Below, piece after piece: positions 9,608 to 54,159 of a stretch of 64,000 nt of DNA. Position numbers and translations under genes: made by a program. This stretch comes from an uncultured Spirochaetota bacterium. GTDB taxonomy: Bacteria > Spirochaetota > Spirochaetia > SZUA-6 > Fen-1364. Where the stretch lies: contig CAVUXE010000037.1 in the NCBI GenBank assembly GCA_963745235.1, forward strand, positions 160,001-224,000, read 5' to 3'. Position 1 is the stretch's first letter; every line of letters begins with the position of its first letter. The notes under the pieces are model-generated. The model had not been told where the DNA came from. It was given only the letters and a program-made list of their open reading frames with translations, and did no database searches.

Positions 9608-9608
9608 G

Positions 9609-33625: not shown

Positions 33626-33931
33626 ACCGCTCCAACTTTCTGGGCCCCACGGCCTGAATCGAGGCTGACGCTGCGACGGCAGAGATCCAACAAAGCACAT
33701 CTATAACAATATCGCAAATAGCGCAGACTGCAACAGACTTGTTCCGACGGCTGCCAGTCGCCGCTTCATTCTCCACGGGGTGGCAAGCCCGCTGTTCTCC
33801 AGCGCCCGCGCCTGTTGCCTGCATGGGCAAAAACTACGTATTTTGAGGCAATCCGTTTCGCAACGCCTATGAGAACCCACACCGCTCTTGCACAACCTCC
33901 CTCGGAAACGAATAATCAAAGCCCTCCGAAC

Positions 33932-36900
33932 ATGAGCCCCGCACACAGCAAAATCGCCCCGCGCGCGCCGTCACGAAAGAGAGCATCCGAGGACTACATC
34001 CTCATCGAAGGGGCCAGGCAGAACAACCTGAGGAACCTGTCCCTCAGGATTCCCCTGCGGAAGCTGATCGTCATCACCGGCGTGAGCGGTTCGGGCAAGT
34101 CATCCCTCGCCTTCGACACCATCTATTCCGAAGGCCAGCGAAGGTACGTGGAGACATTCTCTTCGTACACGCGGCAGTTCCTCGACCGGATGGACAAGCC
34201 CAAGGTGGATCGCATCGAAGGCATCCCGCCCGCAATCGCCATCGACCAGACCAACCCGGTGCGCACCTCCCGCTCCACGGTGGGGACCATGACCGAGCTC
34301 AACGACCATTTGAAGCTCCTCTTTGCGAGGGCAACGCGCCTGTACTGCGGTAACTGTGGAAGGGAAGTTAGGCGCGACACCCCGGAGACCGTTGCTGACC
34401 AGCTCCCCGCGGGCAGGAGGCTGATCCTCACCTTTCCCGTGCGCGTGCCTGAGAACTTCACCGAGGAGGAGGTCCTGGACCTGCTCGGCAAGCAGGGCTA
34501 CACCCGCATCCGCGGAAAAGAGGGGAACACCCTGGAGGTGATCCAGGACAGGATCACCTTCAGCGAGGAGAACAGGCCGCGCCTCATCGAGGACCTGGAA
34601 GCGGCACTGAAGTACGGCCAGGGACGCCTCAGCGCCTACGCCGTGGAGAAGGAGGCGGAGGGGGAGGCCATGCGCTTCTCCTCGGACCTGCACTGCGCTC
34701 ATTGCGACATCCACTACCGCGACCCGTCGCCCAACCTCTTCTCTTTCAACTCCCCCATCGGCGCCTGCGACAGCTGCCGGGGATTCGGCCGCACCATCGG
34801 CATCGACTGGAGCCTCGTTGTGCCGGACGACACGAAGAGCCTGGCGGGGGACGCGGTGAAGCCATGGCAGACGGAAAGCTTCAAGGAGGTCAAGAGTGAT
34901 CTGCTGAAGTTCGCCCGCAAGCGCGGAGTTCCGGTGGACGTCCCGTGGCGCGAGCTCTCCGAGGCCCAACGCGCCTGGGTCATCGAGGGTGAGGGGGACT
35001 GGGACAACGGGGTCTGGTACGGGGCAAAGCGGTTTTTCGGATGGCTGGAGTCAAAGAGCTACCGCATGCACATCCGTGTCCTTCTCTCCCGCTACCGCGC
35101 CTATCAACCCTGCCCGGCGTGCGGAGGCGCGCGGCTGAAACCCGAGGCCCTCCTGTGGAAGATCGGGCCCGGGAAGCTTTCCATTCACGACGTGATGCTC
35201 CTGCCCATCGACGGCTGCCTGGCCTTCTTCGACTCACTTGCCCTGCCGCCGCCGCTGGATGAAGCCACCGAGGCTCTCCTGCGCGAGATCCGAACGCGCA
35301 TCCGCTACCTCGTCGACGTCGGCCTCGGCTACCTCACGCTGGACCGCCAGTCCCGGACGCTGAGCGGCGGGGAGGTCCAGAGGATCAACCTGACCACGGC
35401 CCTGGGGACGTCTCTGGTCAACGCGCTGTTCGTCCTGGACGAGCCGAGCATCGGGCTGCATCCCCGCGATATCGGGCGGCTCATCGGCGTCCTCCGCCGG
35501 CTGCGCGACAGCGGCAACACGATCATCGTGGTGGAGCATGACCCCGAGGTGATACGCGCGGCAGACATGGTGATAGACATGGGCCCGGGGGCGGGCGAGC
35601 ACGGCGGCAGGATCGTGTTCTCCGGCGGCCTTCCCGATCTGCTGCGGAGCGAACGGTCCCTCACCGCGAAATACCTGACCGGGAAGAAGAGAGTGTCCCC
35701 ACGCGGGACCGCGGGAGAGGCGTCGGCATTGGCTGCCTCGGGGAAGGCCCTCAGGCGGATCCGCGTCCTCGGCGCCGCGGAGCACAACCTGAAGGATATC
35801 GATGTCGACATCCCGCTGGACCGGCTGGTCTGCGTCACGGGGGTGAGCGGCTCCGGGAAATCCACCCTGATCCAGGAAGTGCTTTACAACGCCTTGCGGG
35901 CCCTGAAGCATGCCCCGGTTGACGCGCCGGGAAGACACCGCGCGATTGCCGGTCACGAGCTGGTGGAGGCCGTCGTCATGGTGGACCAGTCCCCCATCGG
36001 CAGGACAGCCAGGTCGAACCCCGTCAGCCACGTCGGCGCATTCGACGGCATCCGCAAGCTCTTTGCGGCCGAGCCGCTGGCTCGCGAGCGCGGATACACG
36101 GCGGGCAGCTTCAGCTTCAACGCGGGAAACGGCAGATGCCCCACGTGCAGCGGCAGCGGCTTCGAGCACATCGAGATGCAGTTCCTGAGCGACGTGTACC
36201 TGCGCTGCCCCGACTGCGACGGCCGCAGGTATCGAAAGGAAATCCTGGACGTCATGCTCCTGCCGCCGCGCGGGCCGGCTGGCGGGGCCGGGGCCGGCAA
36301 GTCAATCGCCGACGTGCTGGACATGACCGTGACCGAGGCCTGCGGGTTCTTTGCCGGCGCTCCGGATGTCGTCTCCGCGCTTTCGCCCCTGGCGTCGGTG
36401 GGGCTCGGCTACATGTCCCTCGGGCAGCCGGTCCCCACGCTGAGCGGCGGCGAGGCGCAGAGGCTGAAGCTCGCCGGATATCTCGCGCCGTCGCGCAATG
36501 GCAACGGCAGGAAGGGGACGTTGTTCCTCTTCGATGAGCCCACCACGGGGCTGCACTTCGACGACATCGCGGTCCTCCTGGGCGCCTTTCGGAAGCTCAT
36601 TGCCGCCGGCCACTCCGTGCTCGTGATCGAGCACAACATCGACGTGATCCGCGCCGCGGACTGGATCATCGACCTGGGTCCCGAGGGTGGTGAGGCCGGC
36701 GGAAGGATCGTGTGCGCGGGCACGCCGCGCCAGGTAGCCCGGTGCAGGGAAAGCCACACGGGGGCCGCTCTCCGTGCGGGCGCCTCACGCCGGGGAGGAA
36801 AGGCCGAACCGTCAGCGCAGAAGGAGGCGGCCGCCTTTGGCACGGCGAACGCCATCGTCATCAGGCACGCGAGGGAGCACAACCTCAAGAACATCGACCT

Positions 36901-39415
36901 GGTCATCCCGCGCGACGCGCTGAGCGTGATCACCGGCGTGAGCGGGAGCGGCAAGAGCACCGTTGCCTTCGACATCCTCTTCGCCGAGGGCCAGCGGCGC
37001 TACCTGGAATCCCTGAACGCATATGCACGGCAGTTCGTCCAGCCCGCGAAGCGACCCGACGTGGACGGGGTGTACGGCGTCCCTCCCACGGTTGCCATCG
37101 AGCAGAGAACCAGCCGCGGTGGAAGGAAGAGCACCGTGGCCACTCTGACGGAGATCTACCCGTTCCTTCGCCTCCTGTTCGTGAAGCTCGGGACGCAGTA
37201 CTGCCCTGACTGCAACCTCCCCATCCGGCCGCAGAGCATGGACGCCATCCTGGCGCGCATCCTCCGCGATTACCGGGGCAAACGGGTGGGCATCTTCGCT
37301 CCGCTGATCACGGCTCGAAAGGGATACTACACGGACCTTGCCGCGTGGGCCGCGGCAAAGGGGTTCAAGCATCTTCGGGTGGACGGCGCGCTCCTCCCCA
37401 CCGCACCGTGGCCTCGCCTGGACAGGTTCATCGAGCACACAATCGAGCTCCCCATGGGAGTGGAGTCCGTGAGCGCTGACAGGGAAGCTCGGCTGCGGGA
37501 TGCCCTCAAGCGCGGGCTGGACTTCGGCAAAGGCGTCGTTCACGTGAATGAGACGGTCTTCTCCACCCGCAGGGCATGTCCCCGGTGCGGAAGAAGCTTC
37601 GAGGAGCTGGACCCGCGCCTTTTCTCCTACAACTCGAAGCACGGGTGGTGCCCCTCCTGCTACGGCACAGGCCTTCAGCTCTCGGGCTTCGATTCCGAGC
37701 AGACAGGGGAGGAAGTCTGGTGGAACGACTGGTGGGGCGGACCCGAAAAAACCTGCCCCGATTGCGGGGGAATGCGCCTGCGGCCCGAGGCGCTTGCCGT
37801 GCGCTTCCGGGACAGGAACATCGCGGACTTCGCCCGGCTCCCGGTCCGCGACATGGAGCGGGAGATGAAGGGCCTGCGCCTGGCCGGCCGGGAAAAAGAA
37901 ATTGCCCGGGACATCGTGGCCGAAATGCTCTCCCGGCTCACGTTCCTGCAGGAAGTGGGGTTGTCGTACCTGTCCCTGGATCGCTCGGCGCCCACGCTCA
38001 GCGGAGGGGAAGCCCAGCGCATCAGGCTTGCCTCCCAGCTCGGCTCGAACCTCCGCGGGGTGTGCTACATCCTGGATGAGCCGACAATCGGGCTGCACGC
38101 CAGGGACAACGCCATTCTCCTGGACACCCTCCACGCGCTTCGCGTGAAGGGCAACACCGTTGTCGTGGTGGAGCATGACGAAGAGACAATCCGCAGGGCG
38201 GAGCACGTGGTGGATCTGGGCCCCGGCGGCGGGACGGCCGGCGGCTACCTGGTGGCGCAGGGGAGCCTTGCCGCCATCATCCGAAGCAGGAAGTCCCTGA
38301 CCGGCAAGTACCTCAGGAAACCGCTCGCGCATCCCTGGACCGGCGGCCGGCCGACAAACGGTGACCCTGCGGCCGCTCTCAGGATGACAGGCGCGAGCCT
38401 GCACAACCTGAAGGACCTCGACGTCATAATTCCGCTGGAGCGCCTGGTGTGCATCACCGGTGTCAGCGGAAGCGGCAAGAGCACGCTGGTGCGCGAGGTC
38501 CTCTACGGAAACCTGCATCACCTGCTGGCAGCGGCTCGGAGACGGGGGACGCGGGGGCAAGCCGACGGGCTCCACGGATGCTCCTCCATCGAGGGGTGGG
38601 AGAGAATCGGTCGGGTCCTGGAGGTGGACCAGACCCCCATCGGCAAGACGCCCCGCTCGTGTCCCGCCACCTACGTTGGGATCTGGGACGACATCAGGCG
38701 GCTGTTCGCCGCCTCCAGTGAAGCCCGCATGCGGGGATACACGGCAAGCCGCTTCTCCTTCAACGTTGCCGGCGGACGCTGTGACGAGTGCGAGGGCCAG
38801 GGCATGAAAAAGATCGAGATGAGCTTCCTGCCGGATGTCACGGTCCCCTGCGACGCCTGCTCAGGAGCGCGCTTCAATCCGGAGACCCGTGCAGTGAAGT
38901 TTCGCGGCAGGAGCGTCGGCGACGTGCTGGCCATGAGCGTGGACGAGGCAGTGCCGTTCTTCAGCTTCCACGCGGGCATCCGCCATGCCCTGGAGTTGCT
39001 GCAGCAGGTCGGGCTGGGCTACCTCTCCCTGGGCCAGCAGAGCCCTTCGTTGAGCGGCGGAGAAGCCCAGAGGATCAAGCTCGTCACGGAGCTTGCCAAG
39101 GCGCGCTCCAGCTCAGCCGGCCTGCGCACGCTGTATGTCCTTGATGAGCCCACCATCGGGCTGCACATGTCCGACGTGGAGAAGCTCGTGGGCGTGCTGC
39201 ATCGGCTGGTGGACGCGGGGAACACGGTGGTCATCATCGAGCACAACCTCGACGTGATTGCGGAAGCGGACTGGATCATCGACCTGGGGCCCGAGGGCGG
39301 GGATGAGGGAGGCAGGATCGTTGCCCAGGGAGCTCCGCGGGAGGTGATCCGCCAGCGCTCTGGCTCATACACGGCGAGCTACCTTGCGCGGTTCCTCAAA
39401 GAACGCACAGCGTGA
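33932..39415 (+). CDS. uvrA: Double-length excinuclease ABC subunit A (two UvrA units in one chain)
   Basis: Four GVSGSGKS Walker A, four LSGGE signatures, four DEP Walker B motifs and several Zn fingers in one frame of about 1830 aa. Confidence 0.93.
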   Translation: MSPAHSKIAPRAPSRKRASEDYILIEGARQNNLRNLSLRIPLRKLIVITGVSGSGKSSLAFDTIYSEGQRRYVETFSSYTRQFLDRMDKPKVDRIEGIPPAIAIDQTNPVRTSRSTVGTMTELNDHLKLLFARATRLYCGNCGREVRRDTPETVADQLPAGRRLILTFPVRVPENFTEEEVLDLLGKQGYTRIRGKEGNTLEVIQDRITFSEENRPRLIEDLEAALKYGQGRLSAYAVEKEAEGEAMRFSSDLHCAHCDIHYRDPSPNLFSFNSPIGACDSCRGFGRTIGIDWSLVVPDDTKSLAGDAVKPWQTESFKEVKSDLLKFARKRGVPVDVPWRELSEAQRAWVIEGEGDWDNGVWYGAKRFFGWLESKSYRMHIRVLLSRYRAYQPCPACGGARLKPEALLWKIGPGKLSIHDVMLLPIDGCLAFFDSLALPPPLDEATEALLREIRTRIRYLVDVGLGYLTLDRQSRTLSGGEVQRINLTTALGTSLVNALFVLDEPSIGLHPRDIGRLIGVLRRLRDSGNTIIVVEHDPEVIRAADMVIDMGPGAGEHGGRIVFSGGLPDLLRSERSLTAKYLTGKKRVSPRGTAGEASALAASGKALRRIRVLGAAEHNLKDIDVDIPLDRLVCVTGVSGSGKSTLIQEVLYNALRALKHAPVDAPGRHRAIAGHELVEAVVMVDQSPIGRTARSNPVSHVGAFDGIRKLFAAEPLARERGYTAGSFSFNAGNGRCPTCSGSGFEHIEMQFLSDVYLRCPDCDGRRYRKEILDVMLLPPRGPAGGAGAGKSIADVLDMTVTEACGFFAGAPDVVSALSPLASVGLGYMSLGQPVPTLSGGEAQRLKLAGYLAPSRNGNGRKGTLFLFDEPTTGLHFDDIAVLLGAFRKLIAAGHSVLVIEHNIDVIRAADWIIDLGPEGGEAGGRIVCAGTPRQVARCRESHTGAALRAGASRRGGKAEPSAQKEAAAFGTANAIVIRHAREHNLKNIDLVIPRDALSVITGVSGSGKSTVAFDILFAEGQRRYLESLNAYARQFVQPAKRPDVDGVYGVPPTVAIEQRTSRGGRKSTVATLTEIYPFLRLLFVKLGTQYCPDCNLPIRPQSMDAILARILRDYRGKRVGIFAPLITARKGYYTDLAAWAAAKGFKHLRVDGALLPTAPWPRLDRFIEHTIELPMGVESVSADREARLRDALKRGLDFGKGVVHVNETVFSTRRACPRCGRSFEELDPRLFSYNSKHGWCPSCYGTGLQLSGFDSEQTGEEVWWNDWWGGPEKTCPDCGGMRLRPEALAVRFRDRNIADFARLPVRDMEREMKGLRLAGREKEIARDIVAEMLSRLTFLQEVGLSYLSLDRSAPTLSGGEAQRIRLASQLGSNLRGVCYILDEPTIGLHARDNAILLDTLHALRVKGNTVVVVEHDEETIRRAEHVVDLGPGGGTAGGYLVAQGSLAAIIRSRKSLTGKYLRKPLAHPWTGGRPTNGDPAAALRMTGASLHNLKDLDVIIPLERLVCITGVSGSGKSTLVREVLYGNLHHLLAAARRRGTRGQADGLHGCSSIEGWERIGRVLEVDQTPIGKTPRSCPATYVGIWDDIRRLFAASSEARMRGYTASRFSFNVAGGRCDECEGQGMKKIEMSFLPDVTVPCDACSGARFNPETRAVKFRGRSVGDVLAMSVDEAVPFFSFHAGIRHALELLQQVGLGYLSLGQQSPSLSGGEAQRIKLVTELAKARSSSAGLRTLYVLDEPTIGLHMSDVEKLVGVLHRLVDAGNTVVIIEHNLDVIAEADWIIDLGPEGGDEGGRIVAQGAPREVIRQRSGSYTASYLARFLKERTA

Positions 39416-45501: not shown

Positions 45502-46245
45502 CTACTTCCCGCGCCTGAGCACCTGCGGCACCGATGTGCCTGCCAGGTTCGCGTTGGCCTTCGCATAGTCCGCGGCGGTGAGCCCGGCGGCGGACTTCAG
45601 GCTTCGGTCCGCGCCCGCAATCAGGAGCGCTGAGACGACCTCCGGGCTCGTCGTGTACTGGGCCGCGTACATGAGGGCCGTTTTCCCCCCGGGGCCGCGC
45701 TCATTCACGCGGGCGCCTGCTGCCACGAGGGTGGAAATCATGTGCCTGTCTTCGTTGAGCATGGCGGCGAGCATCAACGGCGTCATACCATCCGAGTTGC
45801 GCGCGTTGACATCAGCGCCTTTGGACAACAGGAGAGCGGCCACCCGGGGATTGGAGTTGTGCGCCGCAGCCGCCATGAGCGGCGTCTCTCCTTCCTTCGA
45901 TGCCGCGTCCACCGACGCCCCGGCGGAGAGAAGGGCAGAGACGACCTCCGGTCGGGTGTTGGAGCGGCCGGCGAGCAGGAGGGCTGACTGGCCCTTGCCG
46001 TCCGACTCATTCACCCTTGCCCCCGCCGCAACGAGGGCGGAGATCACGCGGGGGTCCATGGTGAGCCCGGCGGCATGCATGAGAGGCGTCCACCCGTTTG
46101 CGTCCTTCTGGTTGGCGCCCGCACCCTGGGCAAGGGCGGCCCGCAGCTGGGCAGGCGTGCCATGCTCCGCAAGGCTGAAGATGTCGTCCGCGGCCAGTGC
46201 TGCGACAGGGAGCAGCAGGATCATTATCACTACCGCTTTTTTCAT
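45502..46245 (-). CDS. Secreted ankyrin-repeat protein
   Basis: Signal peptide MKKAVVIMILLLPVAALA; five or six GxTPLMxAA...LLxAGA repeats; GGAGG RBS. Confidence 0.9.
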   Translation of the reverse strand: MKKAVVIMILLLPVAALAADDIFSLAEHGTPAQLRAALAQGAGANQKDANGWTPLMHAAGLTMDPRVISALVAAGARVNESDGKGQSALLLAGRSNTRPEVVSALLSAGASVDAASKEGETPLMAAAAHNSNPRVAALLLSKGADVNARNSDGMTPLMLAAMLNEDRHMISTLVAAGARVNERGPGGKTALMYAAQYTTSPEVVSALLIAGADRSLKSAAGLTAADYAKANANLAGTSVPQVLRRGK

Positions 46246-46338
46246 TCCCCCTCCACGCACCACGAAGAAAGTATACTGCATCCCGGCTCGCATCGCCATG
46301 CACCGCTCGTCTCGATTCTTTGATTATATTAGGAACCG

Positions 46339-47091
46339 ATGAGAGGCCAGGATCAGCTGCTGGGAAGCCGCACGCGCGTCGCCTCCCGCTATGCAGTCCT
46401 TCCCCGGGAGGGCATCCCGTTCTCCCGGCTGCCCGAGTGGCCGCAGGCGCAGGTGCGCGTGCTCGCCGGACCGGCGTTAGGCGCCGGCTTTGTCGAATAC
46501 CTCCTGGACCTCGCGGCCGGGGGCTCCGGCGCGCACGCGGCGGACCAGCGGATAGAGTTCTTCCTCTACGTCCTTTCCGGAGGGGTGACACTGAGCATGG
46601 ACGGCCGCCACCATGACCTGGCCGCGGGGGGGTACGCTTTCATCTCACCGACAAGCGACTTCCGGGCGCTGGCCCGGGACGCGACGAGCCTCCTCATGCT
46701 GCGAAAACAATACCAGGAGGCCGCCGGGGTTGCTCCGTGCTCGAGCTTCGTGGGCAACCAGGCGGAGGTCCCTTCCTCGGTCTACTACGGTGACCCGGGC
46801 GCCCGGCTGCAGGAGCTGATCCCGAACGATCTGTCCTTCGACATGGCCATGAACATCTTCACCTTCGACACAGGCCACAGCCTTCCGGTGACGGAGACGC
46901 ACGTGATGGAGCACGGATTGTACATGCTCCAGGGGAAGGGCGTGTATTACCTGGGGGATTCATGGATGGAAGTGGAGGCCACTGACTTCATCTGGATGGG
47001 ACCTTTCTGCCCGCAGAGCTACTACGCGACCGGCCCCGTGGCCTCCCGGTACATCTACTACAAGAACGTGAACAGAGAGATTCCGTTGTAA
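46339..47091 (+). CDS. allE: (S)-ureidoglycine aminohydrolase (bicupin)
   Basis: ETHVMEHGLYMLQG, DFIWMGPFCPQ and YIYYKNVNR motifs; first gene of the purine operon. Confidence 0.92.
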   Translation: MRGQDQLLGSRTRVASRYAVLPREGIPFSRLPEWPQAQVRVLAGPALGAGFVEYLLDLAAGGSGAHAADQRIEFFLYVLSGGVTLSMDGRHHDLAAGGYAFISPTSDFRALARDATSLLMLRKQYQEAAGVAPCSSFVGNQAEVPSSVYYGDPGARLQELIPNDLSFDMAMNIFTFDTGHSLPVTETHVMEHGLYMLQGKGVYYLGDSWMEVEATDFIWMGPFCPQSYYATGPVASRYIYYKNVNREIPL

Positions 47092-47101
47092 AGGGGACCC
47101 C

Positions 47102-48082
47102 ATGGAAAAGATCTATCGCGATGCCGACGTTGACATGAGCATCCTGAAGAACAAGACCATTGCCGTGATCGGCTACGGGATCCAGGGCAAGGTGCAGGCA
47201 GCCAACGCCCGGGACAGCGGCTGCACCGTGATCGTCGGCACGAGGCCGCCGGAGCACAGCCCGTCTCGAGGGCAGGCACAGGCGGACGGGTTTCCGGCAA
47301 TGAGCGTCGCGGAGGCGAGCAGGAAGGCGGACATCCTGCTCATCGAGCTGGCAGACCCTGCCCAGCCCGCGGTCTACTCCTCGGATATCGCCCCGCACCT
47401 GCGCGCCGGCCAGACCTTGTGCTTCTGCCATGGCTTCAACGTCCTCTACGGCGCCATCCGGCCCCCGGAGAACGTGAACACGGTGCTCTTCGTGCCCAAC
47501 GCGCCCGGGGCTTTCGTACGGGAGAAGTACAAGAAGGGTGAAGGCGTCTACGGGTGCGTCAGCGTCGAGCACGACGCCACGGGGGATGCCCGGCAGATCG
47601 TCCTGGCAATTGCCAAGGCCGTCGGTTCCACGCGCGCGGGCGTCGTGGAGCTTTCGTTCCAGCACGAGACCGAGGGGGACAACTTCGAGGAGCAGATCCT
47701 GTACGGCGGGGCCATCCACCTCATGAGGCTGTGCTTCCAGGTCATGGTGGACAATGGCTACCCCCCGAGCTTCGCCTACGCGAAGGCGGTGCGCTCGCTG
47801 CGCAGCGTCCTGGATGTCATGGATGAGAACGGGATTGAGAGCTACCTGACCACCCGCAGCAGCCGCACCTGCGAGTTCGCCGTGCGCACCCGGGGCCCGC
47901 GCGTCATCAACGAGGAAGCCGTGCGGCAGATCTTCCAGGAAACGGAGAAGGGGCTCTTCGCGCGGGACTGGATGCAGGAATGGGCGCTGGGAATGCCGCA
48001 GCTCCACCGGCTGCGCAGGACGGCCGCTGAGAGCGCAATGGAAAAAACGGGGACCCAATGGCGCAGGGATTTCGGGAAATGA
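47102..48082 (+). CDS. Ketol-acid reductoisomerase (IlvC)-like oxidoreductase with altered active site
   Basis: KARI class I fold (IAVIGYGxQG, RDSG, HGFN, RAGVVE, GPRVI) with substituted catalytic positions; stop overlaps the allC start (ATGA). Confidence 0.85.
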   Translation: MEKIYRDADVDMSILKNKTIAVIGYGIQGKVQAANARDSGCTVIVGTRPPEHSPSRGQAQADGFPAMSVAEASRKADILLIELADPAQPAVYSSDIAPHLRAGQTLCFCHGFNVLYGAIRPPENVNTVLFVPNAPGAFVREKYKKGEGVYGCVSVEHDATGDARQIVLAIAKAVGSTRAGVVELSFQHETEGDNFEEQILYGGAIHLMRLCFQVMVDNGYPPSFAYAKAVRSLRSVLDVMDENGIESYLTTRSSRTCEFAVRTRGPRVINEEAVRQIFQETEKGLFARDWMQEWALGMPQLHRLRRTAAESAMEKTGTQWRRDFGK

Positions 48083-49311
48083 CCTCCTCGGCGCCCGCCG
48101 TGGACGGCAGGCGCATTGCCCGGGACATCGAGACGATTGGCGGCTTCACTGAACAGGACCCGAAGATCGGCCACAGCCGGCCCACTTTTTCTCCCGCGTG
48201 GAGAAAGGCGCGTGACTACGCGGCGCGGGAAGCCGAGGCGGCCGGCTGCGTGGCGCGGGTGGATGCCGCGGGCAATCTCCATGCCCGTCCCGCCGGGCTG
48301 GATTGGGAAACCCCCGCATGGCTGTGCGGCTCGCACGTGGACTCTGTCCCGACGGGCGGCAAGTACGATGGCGTGGTGGGCGTGGCGGTCGCCCTGGAGG
48401 TGCTTCGCGCGGTTCCGCGAGCGGCCGTCGAGCTGATCGTGTTCGCCGAGGAGGAAGGCACCACCTTCAGCCTCGGCATGCTGGGAAGCCGAGCCTGGGT
48501 GGGGACGCTGGGGCCGTCGGAGCTTCGCTCCCTTCGCAACGCGGAGGGAAAGGACTACCTCAGCGCCGGGGCGGACCACGGCGTGGACATCGGCCGGCTG
48601 GAAGCCGAGCGGTTTCCGGCCGAAAGGTACCGCGGGCTGGTGGAAGTGCACGTGGAGCAGGGGCCATCCCTCTGGAAATCAGGGGAGCCCCTGGCCGTGG
48701 TGACGGCCATCAACGGTCGCCGCCAGTACCTGTGCACGCTCACGGGTGCCGCGAACCACGCGGGCTCGACGAAAATGGCGGACCGCAATGATGCCCTTGC
48801 GGGGGCGGCGCAGGGCATGACGTTCCTGGAGTCAGTGGGCCGTGAGCTGGACAGGGAGGCCGAGCACACGGTGATCACCGTCGGGCGGCTGGAGGTGCAC
48901 CCGAATGCCCTCAATGTGATCCCCGGGCGCGTGCGGTTCAGCATCGACTTTCGCTCTCCGGTGGACGCCCTCCTCCAGAGCGGTGAGGAAAGGCTTCGGG
49001 CGCAGCTCCTGCAGATTGCCTCCGCCCGGGGGCTGGACATAGAGATCGTGTGCACGGAGCAGCTTCCGGTCGTCCCCATGGACCGCAGGATGTGCGACAT
49101 GCTCCGAGACGCGGCGCGGCGGCTGGACCTAAGGCTTCCCGACGTGAAAAGCGGCGCCCTTCACGACACCGCCATCGTGGCGCCTTTCCTCCCTTCGGTG
49201 ATGCTCTTCGTGGCCAGCAGAGACGGGATCAGCCACAACCCGGCTGAGTTCAGCCGCATCGAGCACATTGCCCAGGCGGCAAGGGTCCTGGTGGAGGCCT
49301 TTCGCGCATGA
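48079..49311 (+). CDS. allC: Allantoate amidohydrolase (M20)
   Basis: GSHVDSVPTGGKYDG, EEEG, EVHVEQG, NHAG, SGALHD and GISHNPAE motifs; context. Confidence 0.85.
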   Translation: MTSSAPAVDGRRIARDIETIGGFTEQDPKIGHSRPTFSPAWRKARDYAAREAEAAGCVARVDAAGNLHARPAGLDWETPAWLCGSHVDSVPTGGKYDGVVGVAVALEVLRAVPRAAVELIVFAEEEGTTFSLGMLGSRAWVGTLGPSELRSLRNAEGKDYLSAGADHGVDIGRLEAERFPAERYRGLVEVHVEQGPSLWKSGEPLAVVTAINGRRQYLCTLTGAANHAGSTKMADRNDALAGAAQGMTFLESVGRELDREAEHTVITVGRLEVHPNALNVIPGRVRFSIDFRSPVDALLQSGEERLRAQLLQIASARGLDIEIVCTEQLPVVPMDRRMCDMLRDAARRLDLRLPDVKSGALHDTAIVAPFLPSVMLFVASRDGISHNPAEFSRIEHIAQAARVLVEAFRA

Positions 49312-49832
49312 GCGGAGGACCCGTGGCTCTTGCGAAGCTCAACACCGAGACCCTCGAGGGGTTCCTCAGCGCGTGCGGGTCGCTCTTCGAGCGCTCCCCC
49401 TGGGTTGCGGCGCGAACGTGGCGCCGCAGGCCCTTCGCGTCACTGGAGGCGCTTCACGGGGAGCTTGTGTCCACGATGGAGAACGCGTCCGCGGAGGAGA
49501 AGGTGTCTCTGATCCGCTCCCACCCCGACCTGGTCGGGCGCATTGCGGAGGCCGCGGGCTTGAGTGAAATATCCGCTCGGGAACAGGCCGCCGCGGGACT
49601 GGACTCCCTGTCAGCGGAGGAAGTCACGCTGTTCAGGGCCTACAACAGGGAATATCGCGACACGTTCGGTTTCCCGTTCGTCATTTGCGCTCGGGAGAAC
49701 AGGAAGGAGGCGATCCTGCGGGCTTTCCCCGAGCGGCTGGGCCACACGCGGGAGCAGGAGATCGTCGCCGCTCTCGCCGAGATCGCGAAGATCGCCTGGC
49801 TGCGCCTGCGGGACGCGGTCACGGAGGCTTAG
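49308..49832 (+). CDS. uraD: OHCU decarboxylase
   Basis: FERSPW, HPDL, SAREQ, FGFPFVICAR and IAWLRL motifs. Confidence 0.93.
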   Translation: MSGGPVALAKLNTETLEGFLSACGSLFERSPWVAARTWRRRPFASLEALHGELVSTMENASAEEKVSLIRSHPDLVGRIAEAAGLSEISAREQAAAGLDSLSAEEVTLFRAYNREYRDTFGFPFVICARENRKEAILRAFPERLGHTREQEIVAALAEIAKIAWLRLRDAVTEA

Positions 49833-50690
49833 ATGGTCCGACTCCAGGAAAACAGCTACGGCAAGAGCGACGTTCGGTTGACCAAGGTCGTCCGCAAAGG
49901 GGAGACGCACATCCTGCTTGAGCTCACGGTGCAGATCATGCTGGGCGGGTCGTTCGAGCGCATCTACACGGACGGAGACAATGCCTCCTGCATTCCGACC
50001 GATACAATGAAGAACACCGTCTACGCTCTGGCGCGGAAGAACGACTTCGATTCCCCGGAAGCCTTTGGCGGAATCCTTGCCCGGCACTTCCTCCAGTTCG
50101 CGCAAGTGGCGTGGGCGGAGGTGACCATAGAGCAGGAGCCCTGGGTGCGCATCCCGGTGGACGGCTCGCCGCATCCCCACTCATTCACCCGCGGCGGAAG
50201 CTGCACCCGGCTGTGCACGGTGCGGCTGGACCGGGGCGGCGAGCCGGTGGTCAGCGGCGGCCTGAGGGGGCTGGAGGTCATCAAGACGACCAGATCCGGC
50301 TTCGCGGGATTCTTCAGGGACCCCTACACGACCCTTGCCGACACCACGGACCGGATTTTCGCCACGCGGATAGATGCGACGTGGAAGTACGTTCCGGGCA
50401 TTTCATCGTACGCGGAGGTCTTCGAGACGGCGCGCTCCGCGCTGCTGGAGGCGTTCGCCCGGCATGACAGCGCGAGCGTGCAGCAGACAATCTTTGCCAT
50501 CGGGGAAGCGCTGCTGGAACGCCTGCCGCGGATCGCTTCCGTCAGCATCACGATGCCGAACCAGCACCGGCTCCTTGTGAACCTCAAGCAGTTCGACATG
50601 GACAATCCCAACGAGATCTTCGTGGCCACGCGCGAGCCGTACGGCCTCATCAAAGGGACAGTTGCGAGGGATGGAAAATGGGAAGGTTGA
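49833..50690 (+). CDS. pucL: Cofactor-independent urate oxidase (uricase)
   Basis: YGKSDVR, PTDTMKNT, KTTRSGF..F.RD.YTTL...DRIF, SVQ and MPNQH motifs. Confidence 0.94.
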   Translation: MVRLQENSYGKSDVRLTKVVRKGETHILLELTVQIMLGGSFERIYTDGDNASCIPTDTMKNTVYALARKNDFDSPEAFGGILARHFLQFAQVAWAEVTIEQEPWVRIPVDGSPHPHSFTRGGSCTRLCTVRLDRGGEPVVSGGLRGLEVIKTTRSGFAGFFRDPYTTLADTTDRIFATRIDATWKYVPGISSYAEVFETARSALLEAFARHDSASVQQTIFAIGEALLERLPRIASVSITMPNQHRLLVNLKQFDMDNPNEIFVATREPYGLIKGTVARDGKWEG

Positions 50691-51025
50691 CGACTCATGT
50701 CCTTGATACGGCACGGGGCGTGCCGGCCCGCGGCATGCGGATCGAGCTTTTGCGGCAGGAGGACCCGGGGTCACCCCTCCTGAGCGCCTCGACGAACTCG
50801 GACGGCCGGACGGACTCCCCGCTTCTGGAAGGCCCCGGACTGAAGGCGGGCGCCTACCAGCTCGTTTTTCACGTCGGGGATTATTTTCGAAGCCGGGGCG
50901 ATCCGGACGCGGGCCGTTTCCTCGAGGAGGTGCCCGTGGCGTTCGTTGTCGATGATCCAGCCGGGAAGTACCACGTGCCGCTCCTTGTCTCGCCGTGGTC
51001 CTATTCGACCTACCGAGGGAGCTGA
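50678..51025 (+). CDS. uraH: 5-hydroxyisourate hydrolase
   Basis: LTTHVLDT, TNSDGR and YHVPLLVSPWSYSTYRGS signature. Confidence 0.96.
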   Translation: MGRLTTHVLDTARGVPARGMRIELLRQEDPGSPLLSASTNSDGRTDSPLLEGPGLKAGAYQLVFHVGDYFRSRGDPDAGRFLEEVPVAFVVDDPAGKYHVPLLVSPWSYSTYRGS

Positions 51026-51030
51026 GCCGG

Positions 51031-52377
51031 ATGACTCTTGATTGCCTCGTGAAGGGCGCCATGGTGGTGCGCGCATCCGGAGTGGAGCCGCTGTCCATCG
51101 GTATTGCAGACGGCCGGATTGCCGCTCTGGGACAGGAGATCTCCGAGCCGGCCCGGGAAACGATAGACGCCAGAGGCCTTCACGTCTTCCCCGGAGTGGT
51201 GGATGCACACGTGCATTTCAATGACCCGGGCCGCGATTCCTGGGAAGGTGTCCCCACGGGCTCAGCCGCCCTGTGCGCCGGGGGCGGCACGTGCTTCATC
51301 GACATGCCGCTCAACTCTTCCCCGCCGACCCTGGATGCCGCATCGTTCGACAGGAAGCTCGCGGCCTGCCGGGACCGCGCCTATGCTGATTTCGCCCTGT
51401 GGGGCGGGCTGACACCGGACAACCTCGATGAGCTGGAGGCGCTTGCGGAGCGCGGCGTGGTCGGTTTCAAGGCGTTCATGTCCGCAAGCGGGATAGATGA
51501 TTTCCGCGCGTGCGACGACGAGGCCCTCTACAAGGGCATGAGAATTGCCGCCCGCCTGGGCCTCCCCGTCGCTGTCCACGCGGAGAACAACGGGATGACG
51601 AGCGCTCTTTCCGAAATTGCGCGCTCGGCCGGCCGGACGTCTGCGCGGGACTACCTTGCCTCGCGCCCCATTGCGGCGGAGGCGGAGGCCGTCTCACGCG
51701 CGCTCGCGTTTGCGGAGGACACCGGCTGCGCGCTCCACGTGGTTCACACCAGCTCCGCGCGGGGTGTGCAGCTGATCCGAAAGGCCGTCGAGGCGGGGCT
51801 GTGCGATGCGACCTGCGAGACGTGCCCTCATTATCTGCTGCTGTCGGATGAAGACGTGGAAAGGATGGGCGCCCGGGCGAAATGCGCGCCTCCCCTGCGC
51901 TCTGAGGCCGAGCGGAGGAAGCTTGTCCAGGAGGTCGCTGCCGGCCGGGTGGACACCATCGGCTCGGATCACTCCCCCTCGCCCGCGGAAATGAAGCAGG
52001 GACCTGACTTCTTCAGAGTCTGGGGAGGAATCAGCGGGGCGCAGGCGACCCTCCGCGCACTGCTGAGCCTGGATCTGCCCCTGCCCCTGGTGTCCACGCT
52101 GGTGTCAGACAACGTGGCCCGGCGCTTTCGGCTTCCGGGCAAGGGCGGAATCAGGCTGGGTGCGGATGCCGACCTGGCATTCGTCGACATCTCGGACTCG
52201 AAGCCGATGAGGGAGAGCGAGCTCCTGGACCGCCATCACCTCAGCCCGTACGTCGGACGCACGCTGTGCGGCTCCGTCCGTCGAACGATGCTCCGGGGAG
52301 AGACGGTATGTCTGGACGGCAAGATGGCGGGAAAGCCGCGGGGAAGGCACCTTCGACCCGAAGTTACCGAAATGTGA
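51031..52377 (+). CDS. allB: Allantoinase
   Basis: DAHVHFNDPG, DMPLNSSP, GFKAF, HAE, ETCPHY, KCAPPLR, SDHSP and WGGISG motifs. Confidence 0.92.
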   Translation: MTLDCLVKGAMVVRASGVEPLSIGIADGRIAALGQEISEPARETIDARGLHVFPGVVDAHVHFNDPGRDSWEGVPTGSAALCAGGGTCFIDMPLNSSPPTLDAASFDRKLAACRDRAYADFALWGGLTPDNLDELEALAERGVVGFKAFMSASGIDDFRACDDEALYKGMRIAARLGLPVAVHAENNGMTSALSEIARSAGRTSARDYLASRPIAAEAEAVSRALAFAEDTGCALHVVHTSSARGVQLIRKAVEAGLCDATCETCPHYLLLSDEDVERMGARAKCAPPLRSEAERRKLVQEVAAGRVDTIGSDHSPSPAEMKQGPDFFRVWGGISGAQATLRALLSLDLPLPLVSTLVSDNVARRFRLPGKGGIRLGADADLAFVDISDSKPMRESELLDRHHLSPYVGRTLCGSVRRTMLRGETVCLDGKMAGKPRGRHLRPEVTEM

Positions 52378-52662: not shown

Positions 52663-54159
52663 ATGATCGACTGGGTAGCTCTCACCATATTCATCTTCTT
52701 CTTCCTCCTCGTGACGGTGATCGGGTTCGTCGCGGCCCGGTGGCGCAGGGGGAACCTCAAGACGCTGGAGGAGTGGGGCCTGGCGGGCCGCAAGTTCGGC
52801 ACCGTCATCACGTGGTTCCTGCTCGGCGGGGACATCTACACCGCCTACACGTTCGTGGCGGTCCCGGGGCTCGTATTCGCGGCAGGCGCCATGGGCTTTT
52901 TCGCCGTGCCCTATACGGTGCTCATCTACCCCCTTGCGTTCATCGTGCTGCCGAAGTTCTGGTCCGTGTGCAAGGCAAACGGCTACGTCACGCCGTCGGA
53001 TTTCGTCGAAGGCCAGACGGGAAGCAAGACACTCGCGTTCATCATCGCCCTCACCGGAATCGTGGCAACAATGCCCTACATCGCCTTGCAGATGTTCGGC
53101 ATTGCCGTGTCGGTTGCCCAGATGGGGATCAATCCTGAGGTCGCACTCGTTGTCGCGTTTGTCATCCTTGCCGCCTACACATACACAAGCGGCCTGCGCG
53201 CGCCTGCTCTCATTGCGATGGTCAAGGACGCGATGATCTTCATCGTGCTCTTTGCCACCATCATCGTGATCCCGATCTCACTCGGCGGATTCGGGCCGAT
53301 CTTCCGGGCCGCGCAGGAGCACGCGGCGGGGACGCCTGCCTTCCACTTCATCCTGGCCCCGGCCCAGTTCATGCCGTACGCCTCCCTGGTCCTGGGCTCT
53401 GCCCTGGCGCTGTTTCTCTATCCCCACGCCCTCACGGGCACTCTTGCAAGCGGCAGCCCCGAGGTGGTCAAGCGCAACGCGGCCTTGCTGCCGGCATACT
53501 CGCTTCTGCTGGGACTGCTCGCCCTGCTGGGATACATGGCAATTGCGGCCCATGTGACGCCCCCCAAGGCGTATGGGGCGAACGGGATCGTTCCCGCGTT
53601 GATTGCCAAGGAGTTTCCCTCCTGGTTCGCCGGTTTCTGCTTCGCGGCCATCTCTATCGGGGCAATGGTTCCCGCCTCCATCATGTCCATTGCGGCGGCC
53701 AATCTCTTCACGAGGAACATCTATCGTCCCTACCTCCGCCCCAACTACTCGAGCGGAGAAGAGACAAACGTCGCCCGGGTGGCGTCGCTGGTGGTGAAGT
53801 TGGGCGCGCTGCTGTTCATCTTCTTCGTGCCGACGACCTTCATCATCAACCTGCAGCTCCTGGGCGGCATCATCATCATCCAGACCCTGCCGTCGGTCTT
53901 CCTGGGGCTGTTCACGAAGTGGTTCAACAAGTGGGCACTCGTGGTGGGATGGGCGGCGGGCATCGCGAGCGGCATCTCGATGTTTGCCGCGGCGCACAAC
54001 AGCTCCGTGTACACGTTCGTGATAGCCGGTCACGGCCTGGGGATCTACTCGGCACTGTCGTCTTTCGTCATCAACCTGGCAGTGACAGCACTTCTCACGC
54101 CCGTGTTCCAGGTTGCGCAGATACGGCAGCGGCGGAATGCCGCGAAGGCGGAGGCGTAG
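52663..54159 (+). CDS. Sodium:solute symporter (MctP/YhjB-like)
   Basis: EWGLAGRKFG, WFLLGGDIYTAYTF, TMPYIALQ and ALFLYPH motifs; about 13 TM helices. Confidence 0.9.
   Translation: MIDWVALTIFIFFFLLVTVIGFVAARWRRGNLKTLEEWGLAGRKFGTVITWFLLGGDIYTAYTFVAVPGLVFAAGAMGFFAVPYTVLIYPLAFIVLPKFWSVCKANGYVTPSDFVEGQTGSKTLAFIIALTGIVATMPYIALQMFGIAVSVAQMGINPEVALVVAFVILAAYTYTSGLRAPALIAMVKDAMIFIVLFATIIVIPISLGGFGPIFRAAQEHAAGTPAFHFILAPAQFMPYASLVLGSALALFLYPHALTGTLASGSPEVVKRNAALLPAYSLLLGLLALLGYMAIAAHVTPPKAYGANGIVPALIAKEFPSWFAGFCFAAISIGAMVPASIMSIAAANLFTRNIYRPYLRPNYSSGEETNVARVASLVVKLGALLFIFFVPTTFIINLQLLGGIIIIQTLPSVFLGLFTKWFNKWALVVGWAAGIASGISMFAAAHNSSVYTFVIAGHGLGIYSALSSFVINLAVTALLTPVFQVAQIRQRRNAAKAEA

Follow-up and report, generated by a model that had tools for sequence, protein, structure and literature searches.

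The window, by which we mean the whole stretch of 64,000 nucleotides that was analysed, carries a run of purine-catabolic genes on its forward strand (Table 1). The gene under study lies between allE, the first gene of the operon, and a gene for an allC-like M20 amidase. The TAA stop codon of allE (47089-47091) is followed after ten nucleotides (47092-47101) by the ATG of the KARI-like gene at 47102, whose own TGA stop (48080-48082) shares an ATGA with the allC-like start codon at 48079; this tight arrangement had been pointed out in the initial annotation and can be read directly in the sequence. The allC-like product falls under the cut-offs of all the allantoate amidohydrolase equivalog models. 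It matches the N-carbamoyl-L-amino-acid hydrolase 3n5f (208 bits) as well as it matches AllC from E. coli (1z2l, 207 bits), and the score is lower with the ureidoglycolate hydrolase 4pxe (169 bits).

The gene list of the initial annotation did not include the HIU hydrolase gene. An ORF homologous to it is found at the equivalent position in 62 of the 80 related loci (the best 80 of 204, from Spirochaetota, Planctomycetota and Verrucomicrobiota). The listed GTG start of allB overlaps the end of the HIU hydrolase gene, so the true start may be slightly downstream. The MctP-like symporter gene follows allB in only 2 of the 80 loci.

Table 1. Features of the locus and residue map of the KARI-like protein (positions in the window; canonical residues in brackets).
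Feature	Position	Strand	Basis
allE, (S)-ureidoglycine aminohydrolase (bicupin), first gene of the operon	46339..47091	+	TIGR03214 276.1 bits (cut-off 200); Cupin_2
Spacer aggggacccc, 10 nt, with Shine-Dalgarno-like AGGGGA	47092..47101	+	read from sequence
KARI-fold paralogue P0001, 326 aa (subject gene)	47102..48082	+	ORF translation, Pfam, TIGR/NF models, structure model
Residue map of P0001: Rossmann G24-G29; NADP-type loop R48/S53/S55; H110; N133 (K130); D193/E196/E197; K228 (E226); R231; S232 (E230); S254; R255 (D252)			
allC-like M20 amidase, hydantoinase/carbamoylase family	48079..49311	+	TIGR01879 315 bits (cut-off 204)
OHCU decarboxylase (uraD)	49308..49832	+	PF09349 151.8 bits; TIGR03164 179.7 bits (cut-off 96)
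Cofactor-independent urate oxidase	49833..50690	+	PF01014 178.6 bits; TIGR03383 322.7 bits (cut-off 168)
5-Hydroxyisourate (HIU) hydrolase, transthyretin-like	50678..51025	+	PF00576 121.5 bits
Allantoinase (allB)	50995..52377	+	TIGR03178 527.7 bits (cut-off 357.85); match from residue 16
MctP-like sodium:solute symporter, downstream, operon membership uncertain	52663..54159	+	NF046076 674.9 bits (cut-off 625)

The product of the KARI-like gene has the two-domain architecture of ketol-acid reductoisomerases (KARI, IlvC): an N-terminal Rossmann domain for NAD(P)H (KARI_N, PF07991, 186.4 bits) and a C-terminal knotted helical domain (KARI_C, PF01450, 97.7 bits). Its AlphaFold2 model (pLDDT 94.6) superposes on the class I KARI structures 8ep7, 4tsk and 7q03 with a TM score of 0.94 and an rmsd of 1.4-1.8 Å. 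The ORF, the Pfam domains and the superposition bear out the description of a class I KARI-fold gene given in the initial annotation, and all the motifs quoted there are found in the protein: GYGIQG, CHGFN, EGDNFEEQ (D193/E197), AYAKAVRS (K228/S232), VPNAPG (N133), RSSRTCEFA and GTRPPEHSPS. The score is above the cut-off of TIGR00465 for ilvC (277.8 bits, cut-off 226.15) and below those of NF004017 (322.2 bits, cut-off 336) and NF009940 (250.3 bits, cut-off 406). A match to 2-Hacid_dh_C (PF02826; 21.7 bits) is under the gathering cut-off of 25.1 and covers the Rossmann region 9-83 only. The Ldh_2 domain (PF02615) was not found in the protein by Pfam, which makes it at most an analogue of AllD and not a member of that family.

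In canonical KARI, the two-Mg migration of the alkyl group requires the second metal site with its glutamates E226 and E230, and Lys130 of the APKGPG motif is a catalytic residue. An alignment of 80 sequences of the KARI-like family was used to count the residues at these positions, the canonical numbering being that of S. aureus KARI. In all 80 sequences Lys130 is replaced by Asn133, Glu226 by Lys228, Glu230 by Ser232 and Asp252 by Arg255; R231 (His229 in canonical KARI), E196 and N194 are also invariant. The residues retained in 80 of 80 are H110, D193 (D190), E197 (E194), S254 (S251), T256 and E258, and the Rossmann GxGxxG motif is kept. According to PMC13753588 and PMC12202844, the two Mg ions of S. 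aureus KARI are bound by D190 and E194, while E230 coordinates Mg(II) and S251 forms hydrogen bonds with ligands. The loss of the second glutamate pair, which the initial annotation had emphasized, thus holds for the whole family, K228 and S232 being invariant, but the loss of Lys130 and the basic residues gained by the family (K228, R231 and R255) had been given too little weight. The assignment of the cofactor loop to the NADP(H) type is upheld by the conservation of R48 (79 of 80) and of S53 and S55 (80 of 80); the positions mutated to switch class I KARIs from NADPH to NADH are the Arg and Ser positions of this loop (PMC5817062).

The same genome encodes a separate, canonical IlvC on another contig (C53), which scores 440.9 bits compared to 277.6 for the KARI-like gene. 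This IlvC has the motifs APKGPG, ETDLFGEQ, AYFECIHE and SVSDTAEYG, with K130, E226 and E230 present, and the two proteins are 37% identical. Similarly, 36 of the 40 other carrier genomes have an ilvC-model match of at least 379 bits alongside the KARI-like match of 268-300 bits. The gene is therefore a repurposed paralogue and not the housekeeping IlvC, as had been proposed. In the phylogeny, the KARI-like family forms a single clade (SH-aLRT 100) with a long stem. Its sister lineage, represented by P0123, is 50% identical and has kept Lys228, with Glu at the position of Lys130; the P0123 locus is a single 4.2-kb contig, and a scan of metagenome contigs returned only one, spurious match (27%). 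A search of the ESM Atlas with the KARI-like protein returned canonical KARI clusters only.

These results bear on the reading in which the gene simply encodes another ketol-acid reductoisomerase isozyme and only happens to lie in the operon. The fold is identical to that of KARI, the TIGR00465 cut-off is passed, and among the 120 homologues listed all 46 that have a name are called "ketol-acid reductoisomerase" (74 have none). The likeness to class I KARI (EC 1.1.1.86) indeed extends to 35-42% identity, the Arg/Ser loop, the histidine of HGF(N) and the D190/E194 and S251 equivalents. However, K130, E226 and E230 are replaced in every member of the family, NF004017 is missed, the genomes also have a canonical ilvC and the clade is separate. 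In addition, 77 of 79 loci have a purine-catabolic context and the KARI-like gene never adjoins ilv genes in the loci seen, which makes a simple isozyme extremely improbable.

Among the best 80 of 204 related loci, allE immediately precedes the KARI-like gene in 77 of 79 and allC immediately follows it in 74 of 75. Since it recurs in so many loci, the arrangement is not due to chance, and the association of the homologues with allE and allC, which had been put forward as a check, extends over three phyla. The other recurrent neighbors encode uraD, uricase, HIU hydrolase, allantoinase, xanthine dehydrogenase, guanine and adenine deaminases and XdhC. In the loci examined, the remaining genes of the cluster all serve steps that precede ureidoglycolate, and no downstream enzyme is encoded in the clusters.

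The comparison of sequence identities indicates how the cluster spread. Compared with a close relative (G001), identity is 97% for IlvC and 92% for the KARI-like protein. The order is reversed with respect to 16 genomes of Planctomycetota and Verrucomicrobiota, where IlvC is 57% identical and the KARI-like protein 78% (median 78.2%), from which it follows that the purine cluster moved horizontally. The median identities of five cluster neighbors to the same 16 genomes are 47-60%, so that, within the cluster, the KARI-like gene has evolved most slowly. An extraordinary constraint on this gene was considered and rejected: the high identity across phyla results from horizontal transfer, and the gene is simply the slowest member of the cluster.

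A non-redox or structural role could be imagined, for example a NADP(H)-binding scaffold or regulator that arranges AllE and AllC around ureidoglycine and ureidoglycolate, which are unstable, or else some other reaction. It would agree with the tight coupling of the three genes and with the slow evolution of the middle one. On the contrary, the invariance concerns residues of the active site and not the surface alone, and a search among longer proteins (572-2000 aa) gave only two matches (38% and 44% identity), neither of which is fused to AllE or AllC; such a role is quite improbable. Both of these long proteins are no nearer to the family than canonical KARIs are. The prediction of a complex between the KARI-like protein and AllE (score 0.00, mark 0.32, without control runs) speaks neither for nor against binding.

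The ending of the ureide pathway varies between organisms, which use AllA, UAH, AllD or PucG. Ureidoglycolate is the carbinolamide of glyoxylate and urea, and oxalurate is N-carbamoyl-oxamate. The genes that handle these compounds were searched in the genome itself, which is 85.7% complete, and in 40 other carriers (11 spirochaetes and 29 Planctomycetota/Verrucomicrobiota); the incompleteness of metagenome-assembled genomes weakens every absence given here. The initial annotation had found neither AllA, AllD nor PucG in the window. AllA (PF04115) and Ldh_2/AllD (PF02615) were not found even in the whole genome, at its 85.7% completeness, nor was a class-V aminotransferase of the PucG family on the contig of the window. 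Glyoxylate carboligase (gcl) over the cut-off and the urease alpha subunit were not found in the genome either. In the carriers, the AllD equivalog (TIGR03175), gcl over the cut-off and oxalyl-CoA decarboxylase (oxc) were found in 0 of 40, urease is present in 4 and absent from 36, and 22 have a single M20 amidase. The expected exclusion of allD therefore holds and that of allA holds only for the most part: AllA has no match in 33 of 40 and weak matches in 7 of 40, the weak AllA-like match being present in 7 of the 11 spirochaetes.

The genome also encodes malate synthase G and, away from the contig of the window, AllF, two copies of AllG, AllH and a carbamate-kinase-like protein; the AllFGH genes have a nucleobase permease and an Xdh-like gene as neighbors. 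AllG is present in 9 of the 11 other spirochaete carriers and in 0 of the 29 Planctomycetota/Verrucomicrobiota carriers. By comparison, 24 of the 400 Spirochaetota that were sampled have AllG, and the KARI-like gene is found in none of them; the higher share among spirochaete carriers may simply reflect their lineage. Of 401 Planctomycetota genomes sampled, only 3 have AllE, a number too small for anti-correlation statistics; one of the three, which has no KARI-like gene, has the arrangement M20-allE-M20.

The known ureide endings are thus largely not encoded in these Spirochaetota, Planctomycetota and Verrucomicrobiota carriers, and the KARI-like family is an obvious candidate for the missing ureidoglycolate step. 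The residue changes, the allE-X-allC context and the scarcity of ureidoglycolate genes in the carriers point to a KARI paralogue dedicated to purine catabolism, and the loss of catalytic residues together with the same operon position in three phyla makes a last, undescribed step of purine breakdown probable. We consider it very likely that the protein, which we read as a neofunctionalized class I KARI-fold oxidoreductase, is not a KARI but a purine-catabolic enzyme tied to AllE and AllC. The earlier proposal that it fills the missing step is upheld in part, as regards the paralogue, its link with allE and allC, and the carriers that lack AllD (40 of 40) and AllA (33 of 40); of the two reactions that it offered, oxidation of ureidoglycolate is only tentatively placed before reduction of glyoxylate.

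The reaction that we tentatively favor, from the genomic context, is (S)-ureidoglycolate + NADP+ to oxalurate + NADPH. The enzyme would act on ureidoglycolate, which AllE, encoded just upstream, produces. The second metal site would be replaced by hydrogen-bond donors and cations that fit the neutral, polar ureido substituent, while the remaining site would still bind a 2-hydroxy-carboxylate and hydride would be transferred between C2 and NADP(H); the acetolactate reductoisomerase reaction would no longer be performed. A CIP analysis shows that the arrangement at C2 of (S)-ureidoglycolate is that of the KARI product (2R)-2,3-dihydroxyisovalerate, and the title of PDB entry 6bul ("hydroxyoxamate inhibitor") indicates that KARI active sites bind N-substituted oxamates. 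In this genome, oxalurate could pass to AllF/AllG/AllH (oxamic transcarbamylase) and carbamate kinase.

The analogy with E. coli and the AllFGH genes of the spirochaete carriers lend tentative support to the dehydrogenase. According to PMC11326118, the E. coli allECD operon is directly upstream of allFGHK. The KARI-like gene is the third member beside allE and allC (allE-X-allC compared to allECD), as allD is in E. coli, and its product would have the same substrate and product as AllD, whose equivalog the carriers lack. Unlike AllD, which has the Ldh_2 fold, it has an unrelated fold and would probably use NADP rather than NAD, and its activity is deduced from context.

Several observations argue against ureidoglycolate oxidation. 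E. coli AllD uses NAD+, and the strictly conserved NADP(H)-type loop of the family is more usual in reductases than in catabolic dehydrogenases. Moreover, most carriers have no AllG (0 of 29) and no oxc (0 of 40), hence oxalurate would have no recognized fate in them: if neither the M20 amidase nor another enzyme takes oxalurate, half of the nitrogen that is left would stay locked in it. The possible lineage effect behind AllG and the weak AllA-like matches in 7 of the 11 spirochaete carriers also count against this reading. A route from oxalurate through oxamate to oxalate, which oxalate catabolism would mark, has no support since oxc is found in none of the 40 carriers.

A rival reading is a reductive route that forms glycine. 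In this case, NADPH would reduce the N-carbamoyl-imine derived from dehydrated ureidoglycolate to N-carbamoylglycine, which the neighboring carbamoylase-type M20 amidase would hydrolyze to glycine, NH3 and CO2; in a variant, iminoacetate or hydroxyglycine would be reduced to glycine after decarbamoylation. To our knowledge, neither this reaction nor the occurrence of N-carbamoylglycine has a precedent in purine catabolism. The clusters of Planctomycetota and Verrucomicrobiota hold no other downstream enzyme, their carriers lack AllG, none of the 40 carriers has the AllD equivalog, gcl or oxc, 36 of 40 have no urease and in 22 of 40 there is just one M20 amidase. The M20 neighbor in the window is as close to 3n5f as to AllC and is under the allantoate amidohydrolase cut-offs. 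The invariant or nearly invariant NADP(H)-type loop also agrees with a reduction. The loss of the catalytic lysine separates imine reductases from their hydroxyacid-dehydrogenase relatives, and the KARI-like family has lost its lysine too. The reduction of an imine is within the ability of the KARI fold: Streptomyces KARIs reduce pyrroline-5-carboxylate in vitro and rescue the growth of a S. coelicolor ilvC1 ilvC2 proC triple mutant (PMC4353338). The route leaves the AllFGH genes of the spirochaete carriers unexplained, although these might serve another pathway, and we regard it as rather unlikely. If it were true, the operon would be self-contained, with all four nitrogens recovered without urea, and would end in glycine and not in glyoxylate, urea or oxalurate.

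Alternatively, the enzyme could be a NADPH-dependent reductase of glyoxylate, hydroxypyruvate or another small 2-oxo acid, with toxic glyoxylate as its target. Ureidoglycolate would then break down on its own or be cleaved by an M20 amidase of dual specificity or a weak AllA-like protein. Glyoxylate-handling genes are part of the allantoin regulon of E. coli, and the NADP(H)-type loop suits a reductase. Both allantoate and ureidoglycolate might be substrates of the M20 amidase; the planctomycete without the KARI-like gene has M20-allE-M20. KARI is described as a promiscuous reductase, and its scaffold reduces several 2-oxo acids (PMC4353338). Yet this reading needs an additional ureidoglycolate-cleaving activity, whereas AllA is absent from 33, a second M20 amidase from 22 and urease from 36 of the 40 carriers. 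It leaves unexplained why almost all loci have the gene flanked by allE and allC, so many invariant polar and basic residues are odd in the active site for such a small substrate, and the genome already encodes malate synthase G; we judge it unlikely. A tartronate-semialdehyde reductoisomerase, which would catalyze the demethyl analogue of the KARI reaction, was excluded because gcl over the cut-off is found neither in the 40 carriers nor in this genome.

Coming back to the favored reading, a ureidoglycolate dehydrogenase of the KARI fold would differ from the other enzymes that act on the product of AllE, UAH and AllA, which have other folds and work as a hydrolase and a lyase, without redox chemistry; the planctomycete that lacks the KARI-like gene has its second M20 gene beside allE. 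The recruitment of a KARI paralogue outside the ilv pathway is already known from BurG, the cyclopropanol synthase of Burkholderia secondary metabolism (7pcc/7pce), which P0001 matches with 167 bits (7pcc). The KARI-like family forms its own clade and has Ser232 where BurG, which keeps most KARI active-site residues, has the general base Glu232, equivalent to E230 (PMC13753588).

A search of the open-access literature returned no paper that ties KARI or ilvC to ureide catabolism, and the terms "ketol", "reductoisomerase", "oxalurate" and "Planctomycet" do not occur in a 2026 review (PMC13751858). The family is a clear case of active-site remodelling in a well-studied scaffold, in which a two-metal site has given way to Lys, Arg and Ser. 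It is also the source of a systematic annotation error: the protein passes TIGR00465 and all the names given to its homologues are ketol-acid reductoisomerase, so that too many ilvC genes are counted when the metabolism of soil and freshwater metagenome-assembled genomes is reconstructed. If the enzyme is a ureidoglycolate dehydrogenase, it would represent a second, non-homologous origin of that activity, and the gene might underlie EC 1.1.1.154, which we take to be the NAD(P)+-dependent ureidoglycolate dehydrogenase activity. If it works as a reductase on the imine, it would open a new route from purines to glycine.

The open reading frame of the KARI-like gene spans 326 codons, and its product contains the Pfam domains KARI_N (residues 14-180, 186.4 bits) and KARI_C (186-322, 97.7 bits). 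Its top relatives of solved structure are the class I KARIs 5e4r (271.6 bits) and 7q03 (267.8 bits), and its AlphaFold2 model (mean pLDDT 94.6, 42-row alignment) matches KARI structures with a TM score of 0.94 and an rmsd of 1.4–1.8 Å. The gene begins 10 nt after the TAA codon of allE (ureidoglycine aminohydrolase), and its TGA codon overlaps the ATG of the M20 amidase gene (allC) as ATGA. The genes for OHCU decarboxylase, urate oxidase, HIU hydrolase, allantoinase and an MctP-like permease follow in this order. The initial annotation had described the operon as devoted to urate and allantoin catabolism but had not listed the HIU hydrolase, the gene of which overlaps the listed uricase and allantoinase ORFs by a few codons each. 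Since this gene is present, the operon encodes all the steps from urate to ureidoglycolate. A consensus scan revealed no sigma-70-like promoter ahead of allE, whose start is only some 40 nt from that of the ankyrin-repeat gene (region 45502-46339).

Features of the window, of other contigs of the same genome (G000) and of one comparison locus
Feature	Location	Coordinates	Strand	Remarks
Very long open frame	window	33815-39415	+	1866 aa, TTG start; upstream of operon
Ankyrin-repeat gene	window	45502-46299	minus	upstream of allE
allE	window		+	directly upstream of KARI-like gene; TIGR03214 276 bits, cut-off 200
KARI-like gene	window	47102-48082	+	326 aa
HIU hydrolase	window	50678-51025	+	transthyretin-like, 115 aa; between uricase and allantoinase
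MctP-type monocarboxylate permease	window	52663-54159	+	after allantoinase; likewise in only 2/80 related loci (closest relatives)
FdrA/AllF	locus L084 (C62:29500-49499)	7497-9245
AllG	locus L084	9242-10693
AllH-like ORF	locus L084	15881-17017
Second FdrA-like/AllG pair	locus L085 (C3:18000-37999)	7926-10757	minus	directly downstream of PnrA/Bmp-type nucleoside ABC transporter
Adjacent allantoinase (29%) and M20 amidase (31%) paralogues	contig C29	160564-163243		about 31 kb from carbamate-kinase-like gene (194700-195633)
M20 amidase genes on both sides of allE	locus L108 (G409:C37)	189423-193142		Planctomycetota without KARI-like gene

The genome of the window (5.85 Mb, 104 contigs, 85.7% complete) contains a second gene, on contig C53, which matches the ilvC model TIGR00465 with 440.9 bits, compared to 277.6 bits for the KARI-like gene. 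The two proteins are 37% identical, and the C53 IlvC has the canonical motifs APKGPG, ETDLFGEQ, AYFECIHE and SVSDTAEYG. The KARI-like type (268–300 bits) is matched in all of 40 other carrier genomes (11 Spirochaetota and 29 Planctomycetota/Verrucomicrobiota), 36 of which have a separate ilvC-model match of 379–468 bits. In two carriers (G011 and G021) the second KARI gene is in two pieces, and in two others (G015 and G036) the second match is weaker only (194 and 188 bits). The KARI-like gene is a paralogue, distinct from the housekeeping IlvC.

The window protein and 79 full-length relatives from the 80 best loci were aligned with the C53 IlvC, whose residue numbering is that of the S. aureus KARI. 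The residues G24, G26, Q28, G29, H110, T256, E258, D193 (canonical D190), E197 (E194) and S254 (S251) are kept in all 80 sequences, as are S53 and S55 of the NADP-type loop; Y25 and R48 are kept in 79. In the S. aureus enzyme, D190 and E194 are described as coordinating Mg(I) and Mg(II) (PMC13753588), and S251 as hydrogen bonding to bound ligands (PMC12202844). The family therefore retains the site for the cofactor, one of the metal pairs and the serine that binds the carboxylate. Ten positions are changed in all 80 sequences: N133 (canonical K130), K228 (E226), R231 (H229), S232 (E230), R255 (D252), E196 (G193), N194 (L191), G192 (T189), Y201 (C199) and C109 (A106). Mutagenesis has shown that K130 of KARI is essential. 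E230 is described as a Mg(II) ligand which hydrogen-bonds transition-state analogues (PMC12202844). The family has therefore lost both the catalytic lysine and the second of the metal sites, and has gained three basic residues. Judging from these substitutions, the canonical alkyl migration is very unlikely, and the active site contradicts the idea of an ordinary KARI isozyme, which is highly improbable. In class I KARIs, a switch to NADH in place of NADPH has been reported with mutations at loop positions matching R48, S53 and S55 (PMC5817062), so the use of NADP(H) is a reasonable prediction. The motifs listed in the initial annotation are all found in the window protein at the positions it gave, and two of the traits it had noted, the loss of the second glutamate pair and the NADP(H)-type loop, extend to the family. 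BurG, a known repurposed KARI, is described as keeping the KARI active site (PMC13753588), whereas that of the present family is remodelled.

A word-indexed protein search with the KARI-like protein returned 2741 proteins (E ≤ 0.001), of which the top 120 are 79–98% identical to it and 326–334 aa long; 46 are all named "ketol-acid reductoisomerase" and the remaining 74 are nameless. Relatives are encoded on 204 stretches (one genome per species), the best 80 of which were used for the neighbourhood counts. These 80 loci all come from MAGs of Spirochaetota, Verrucomicrobiota and Planctomycetota (Tepidisphaerales, Phycisphaerae, Pirellulales and Planctomycetaceae). A tblastn search with the seven proteins of the window's operon placed allE upstream (same strand, at most 2.5 kb away) in 77 of the 79 loci having at least 300 nt of upstream sequence (median gap 36 nt), and allC downstream in 74 of the 75 having at least 300 nt on that side (median gap 32 nt). 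A PriA-like helicase gene replaces allE in one exception (L055, upstream of 8001) and just 605 nt precede the gene in the other (L056); in the exception for allC (L041, downstream of 3003) methyltransferase and Fur-like genes are found instead. The genes uraD, uricase and allantoinase are present at 66, 57 and 60 of the 80 loci, many of which stop at contig ends. ORF clustering added HIU hydrolase (62 loci), fused xanthine dehydrogenase (36), guanine-deaminase-like amidohydrolase (29), adenine deaminase (17) and XdhC (15). All these recurrent neighbours act before ureidoglycolate, and the clustering of the 80 loci revealed no recurrent gene for a later step. The allE–KARI-like–allC arrangement is intact even where the other gene order has changed (Verrucomicrobiota L068 and L076). 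At L108, the two M20 amidases are each about 34% identical to the window AllC and the second occupies the slot of the KARI-like gene, an arrangement which resembles the plant-type AAH-UGlyAH-UAH.

Within the operon, only the KARI-like protein has no step assigned to it, and among the intermediates only ureidoglycolate has no enzyme; therefore, the protein most probably acts on the product of AllE. A structural role is improbable. The initial annotation had noted the lack of AllA, AllD and PucG in the window; PF04115 (AllA) and PF02615 (AllD family) were not found in the whole genome either, nor was a class-V aminotransferase (PucG family) on the window's contig. The genome has malate synthase G, but no glyoxylate carboligase above the cut-off and no urease alpha. 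The 40 other carriers are all MAGs, so that every absence means "not found". The AllD equivalog (TIGR03175) is above the cut-off in none of them (best 243 bits vs. 496), and AllA is matched in seven (27–43 bits, spirochaetes only). Ldh_2 (PF02615) occurs in 29 carriers, never inside the cluster (the nearest one noted, in G026, is some 47 kb away from the KARI-like gene), urease alpha in four, and gcl and oxalyl-CoA decarboxylase in none. The initial proposal that the protein fills the missing step is partly supported: it is a purine-operon paralogue which most probably acts on the AllE product. Of the two reactions proposed, oxidation is tentatively favoured, and glyoxylate reduction, which needs one more enzyme to cleave ureidoglycolate, is unlikely.

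The reaction ranked first, possible but far from assured, is the NADP+-dependent oxidation of (S)-ureidoglycolate to oxalurate, which matches the E. coli allECD analogy. KARI active sites bind N-substituted oxamates (title of PDB 6bul), the C2 configuration of (S)-ureidoglycolate is that of (2R)-dihydroxyisovalerate by our own CIP analysis, and, even with NADP+, oxidizing a carbinolamide to an imide should be easy in thermodynamic terms. In E. coli, AllFGH is described as an oxamic transcarbamylase that consumes oxalurate, encoded directly downstream of allECD (PMC11326118). The genome of the window has two AllG copies (339.7 and 238.9 bits), and an FdrA/AllF gene (520 bits, cut-off 433) precedes one of them. 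Grouped with this pair on the contig are AllH, a PF04199 cyclase, a thiolase-domain protein, an NCS2 nucleobase permease, a GntR regulator and an XdhB-like FAD subunit, and L084 may be a second nucleobase-degradation cluster with an oxamic-transcarbamylase-like complex. AllH was not detected at L085. A carbamate-kinase-like gene on C29 is split in two frames (301.8 and 55.6 bits); the paralogues on that contig look like a hydantoinase/carbamoylase pair. Of the 11 other spirochaete carriers, 9 have AllG, vs. none of the 29 Planctomycetota/Verrucomicrobiota carriers; among 400 evenly sampled Spirochaetota genomes, 24 have AllG and none the KARI-like gene. The enrichment of AllG among spirochaete carriers is real, although it may be a lineage effect. 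The spirochaete carriers possess AllFGH and lack AllD, which favours a dehydrogenase; the weak point of this reading is that no oxalurate route is seen in most carriers.

A self-contained operon, as would fit the Planctomycetota/Verrucomicrobiota genomes, results if NADPH reduces the dehydrated N-carbamoyl-imine of ureidoglycolate to N-carbamoylglycine, or iminoacetate to glycine, and the M20 neighbour finishes the pathway. This neighbour is equally close to N-carbamoyl-L-amino-acid hydrolase and AllC, and promiscuous reduction of the imine P5C by KARIs has been reported (PMC4353338). Such a pathway has no known precedent, and this second-ranked reaction is rather unlikely. The M20 hydantoinase/carbamoylase family is represented by a single copy, the cluster's own, in 22 of the 40 carriers. 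The open-access full texts searched, and a term search of a 2026 review of urate catabolism, yielded no account of a KARI-like enzyme acting in the breakdown of ureides.

A tree of 77 rows was built from 19 family members, 13 canonical IlvC (12 from carrier genomes and that of C53) and 45 representatives, the first full-length ones (300–360 aa) of 150, shorter or longer ones being left out. The family forms a single clade (SH-aLRT 100) with a long stem and short internal branches; the next branch is P0123 alone, a representative protein of 50% identity which is the family's nearest outside relative. P0123, from a single 4.2-kb contig, keeps Lys228 and has Glu, Gly and Thr at the positions of Lys130, E230 and D252; it possibly represents a further KARI lineage with a remodelled site.

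In 16 Planctomycetota/Verrucomicrobiota genomes, the median identities to the window proteins are 56.8% for IlvC, 78.2% for the KARI-like protein, 60.2% for AllE, 54.5% for AllC, 55.3% for UraD, 47.0% for Uox and 54.0% for AllB. With the close relative G001 they are 97.3, 91.7, 81.2 and 81.9% for the first four, with no value for the others. The divergence of the whole operon between phyla is much below the prediction for vertical inheritance: the operon has moved horizontally. Within it, the KARI-like gene evolves most slowly, with about half the divergence of its neighbours. This gene is, we firmly conclude, a neofunctionalised KARI paralogue which belongs to the purine operon.
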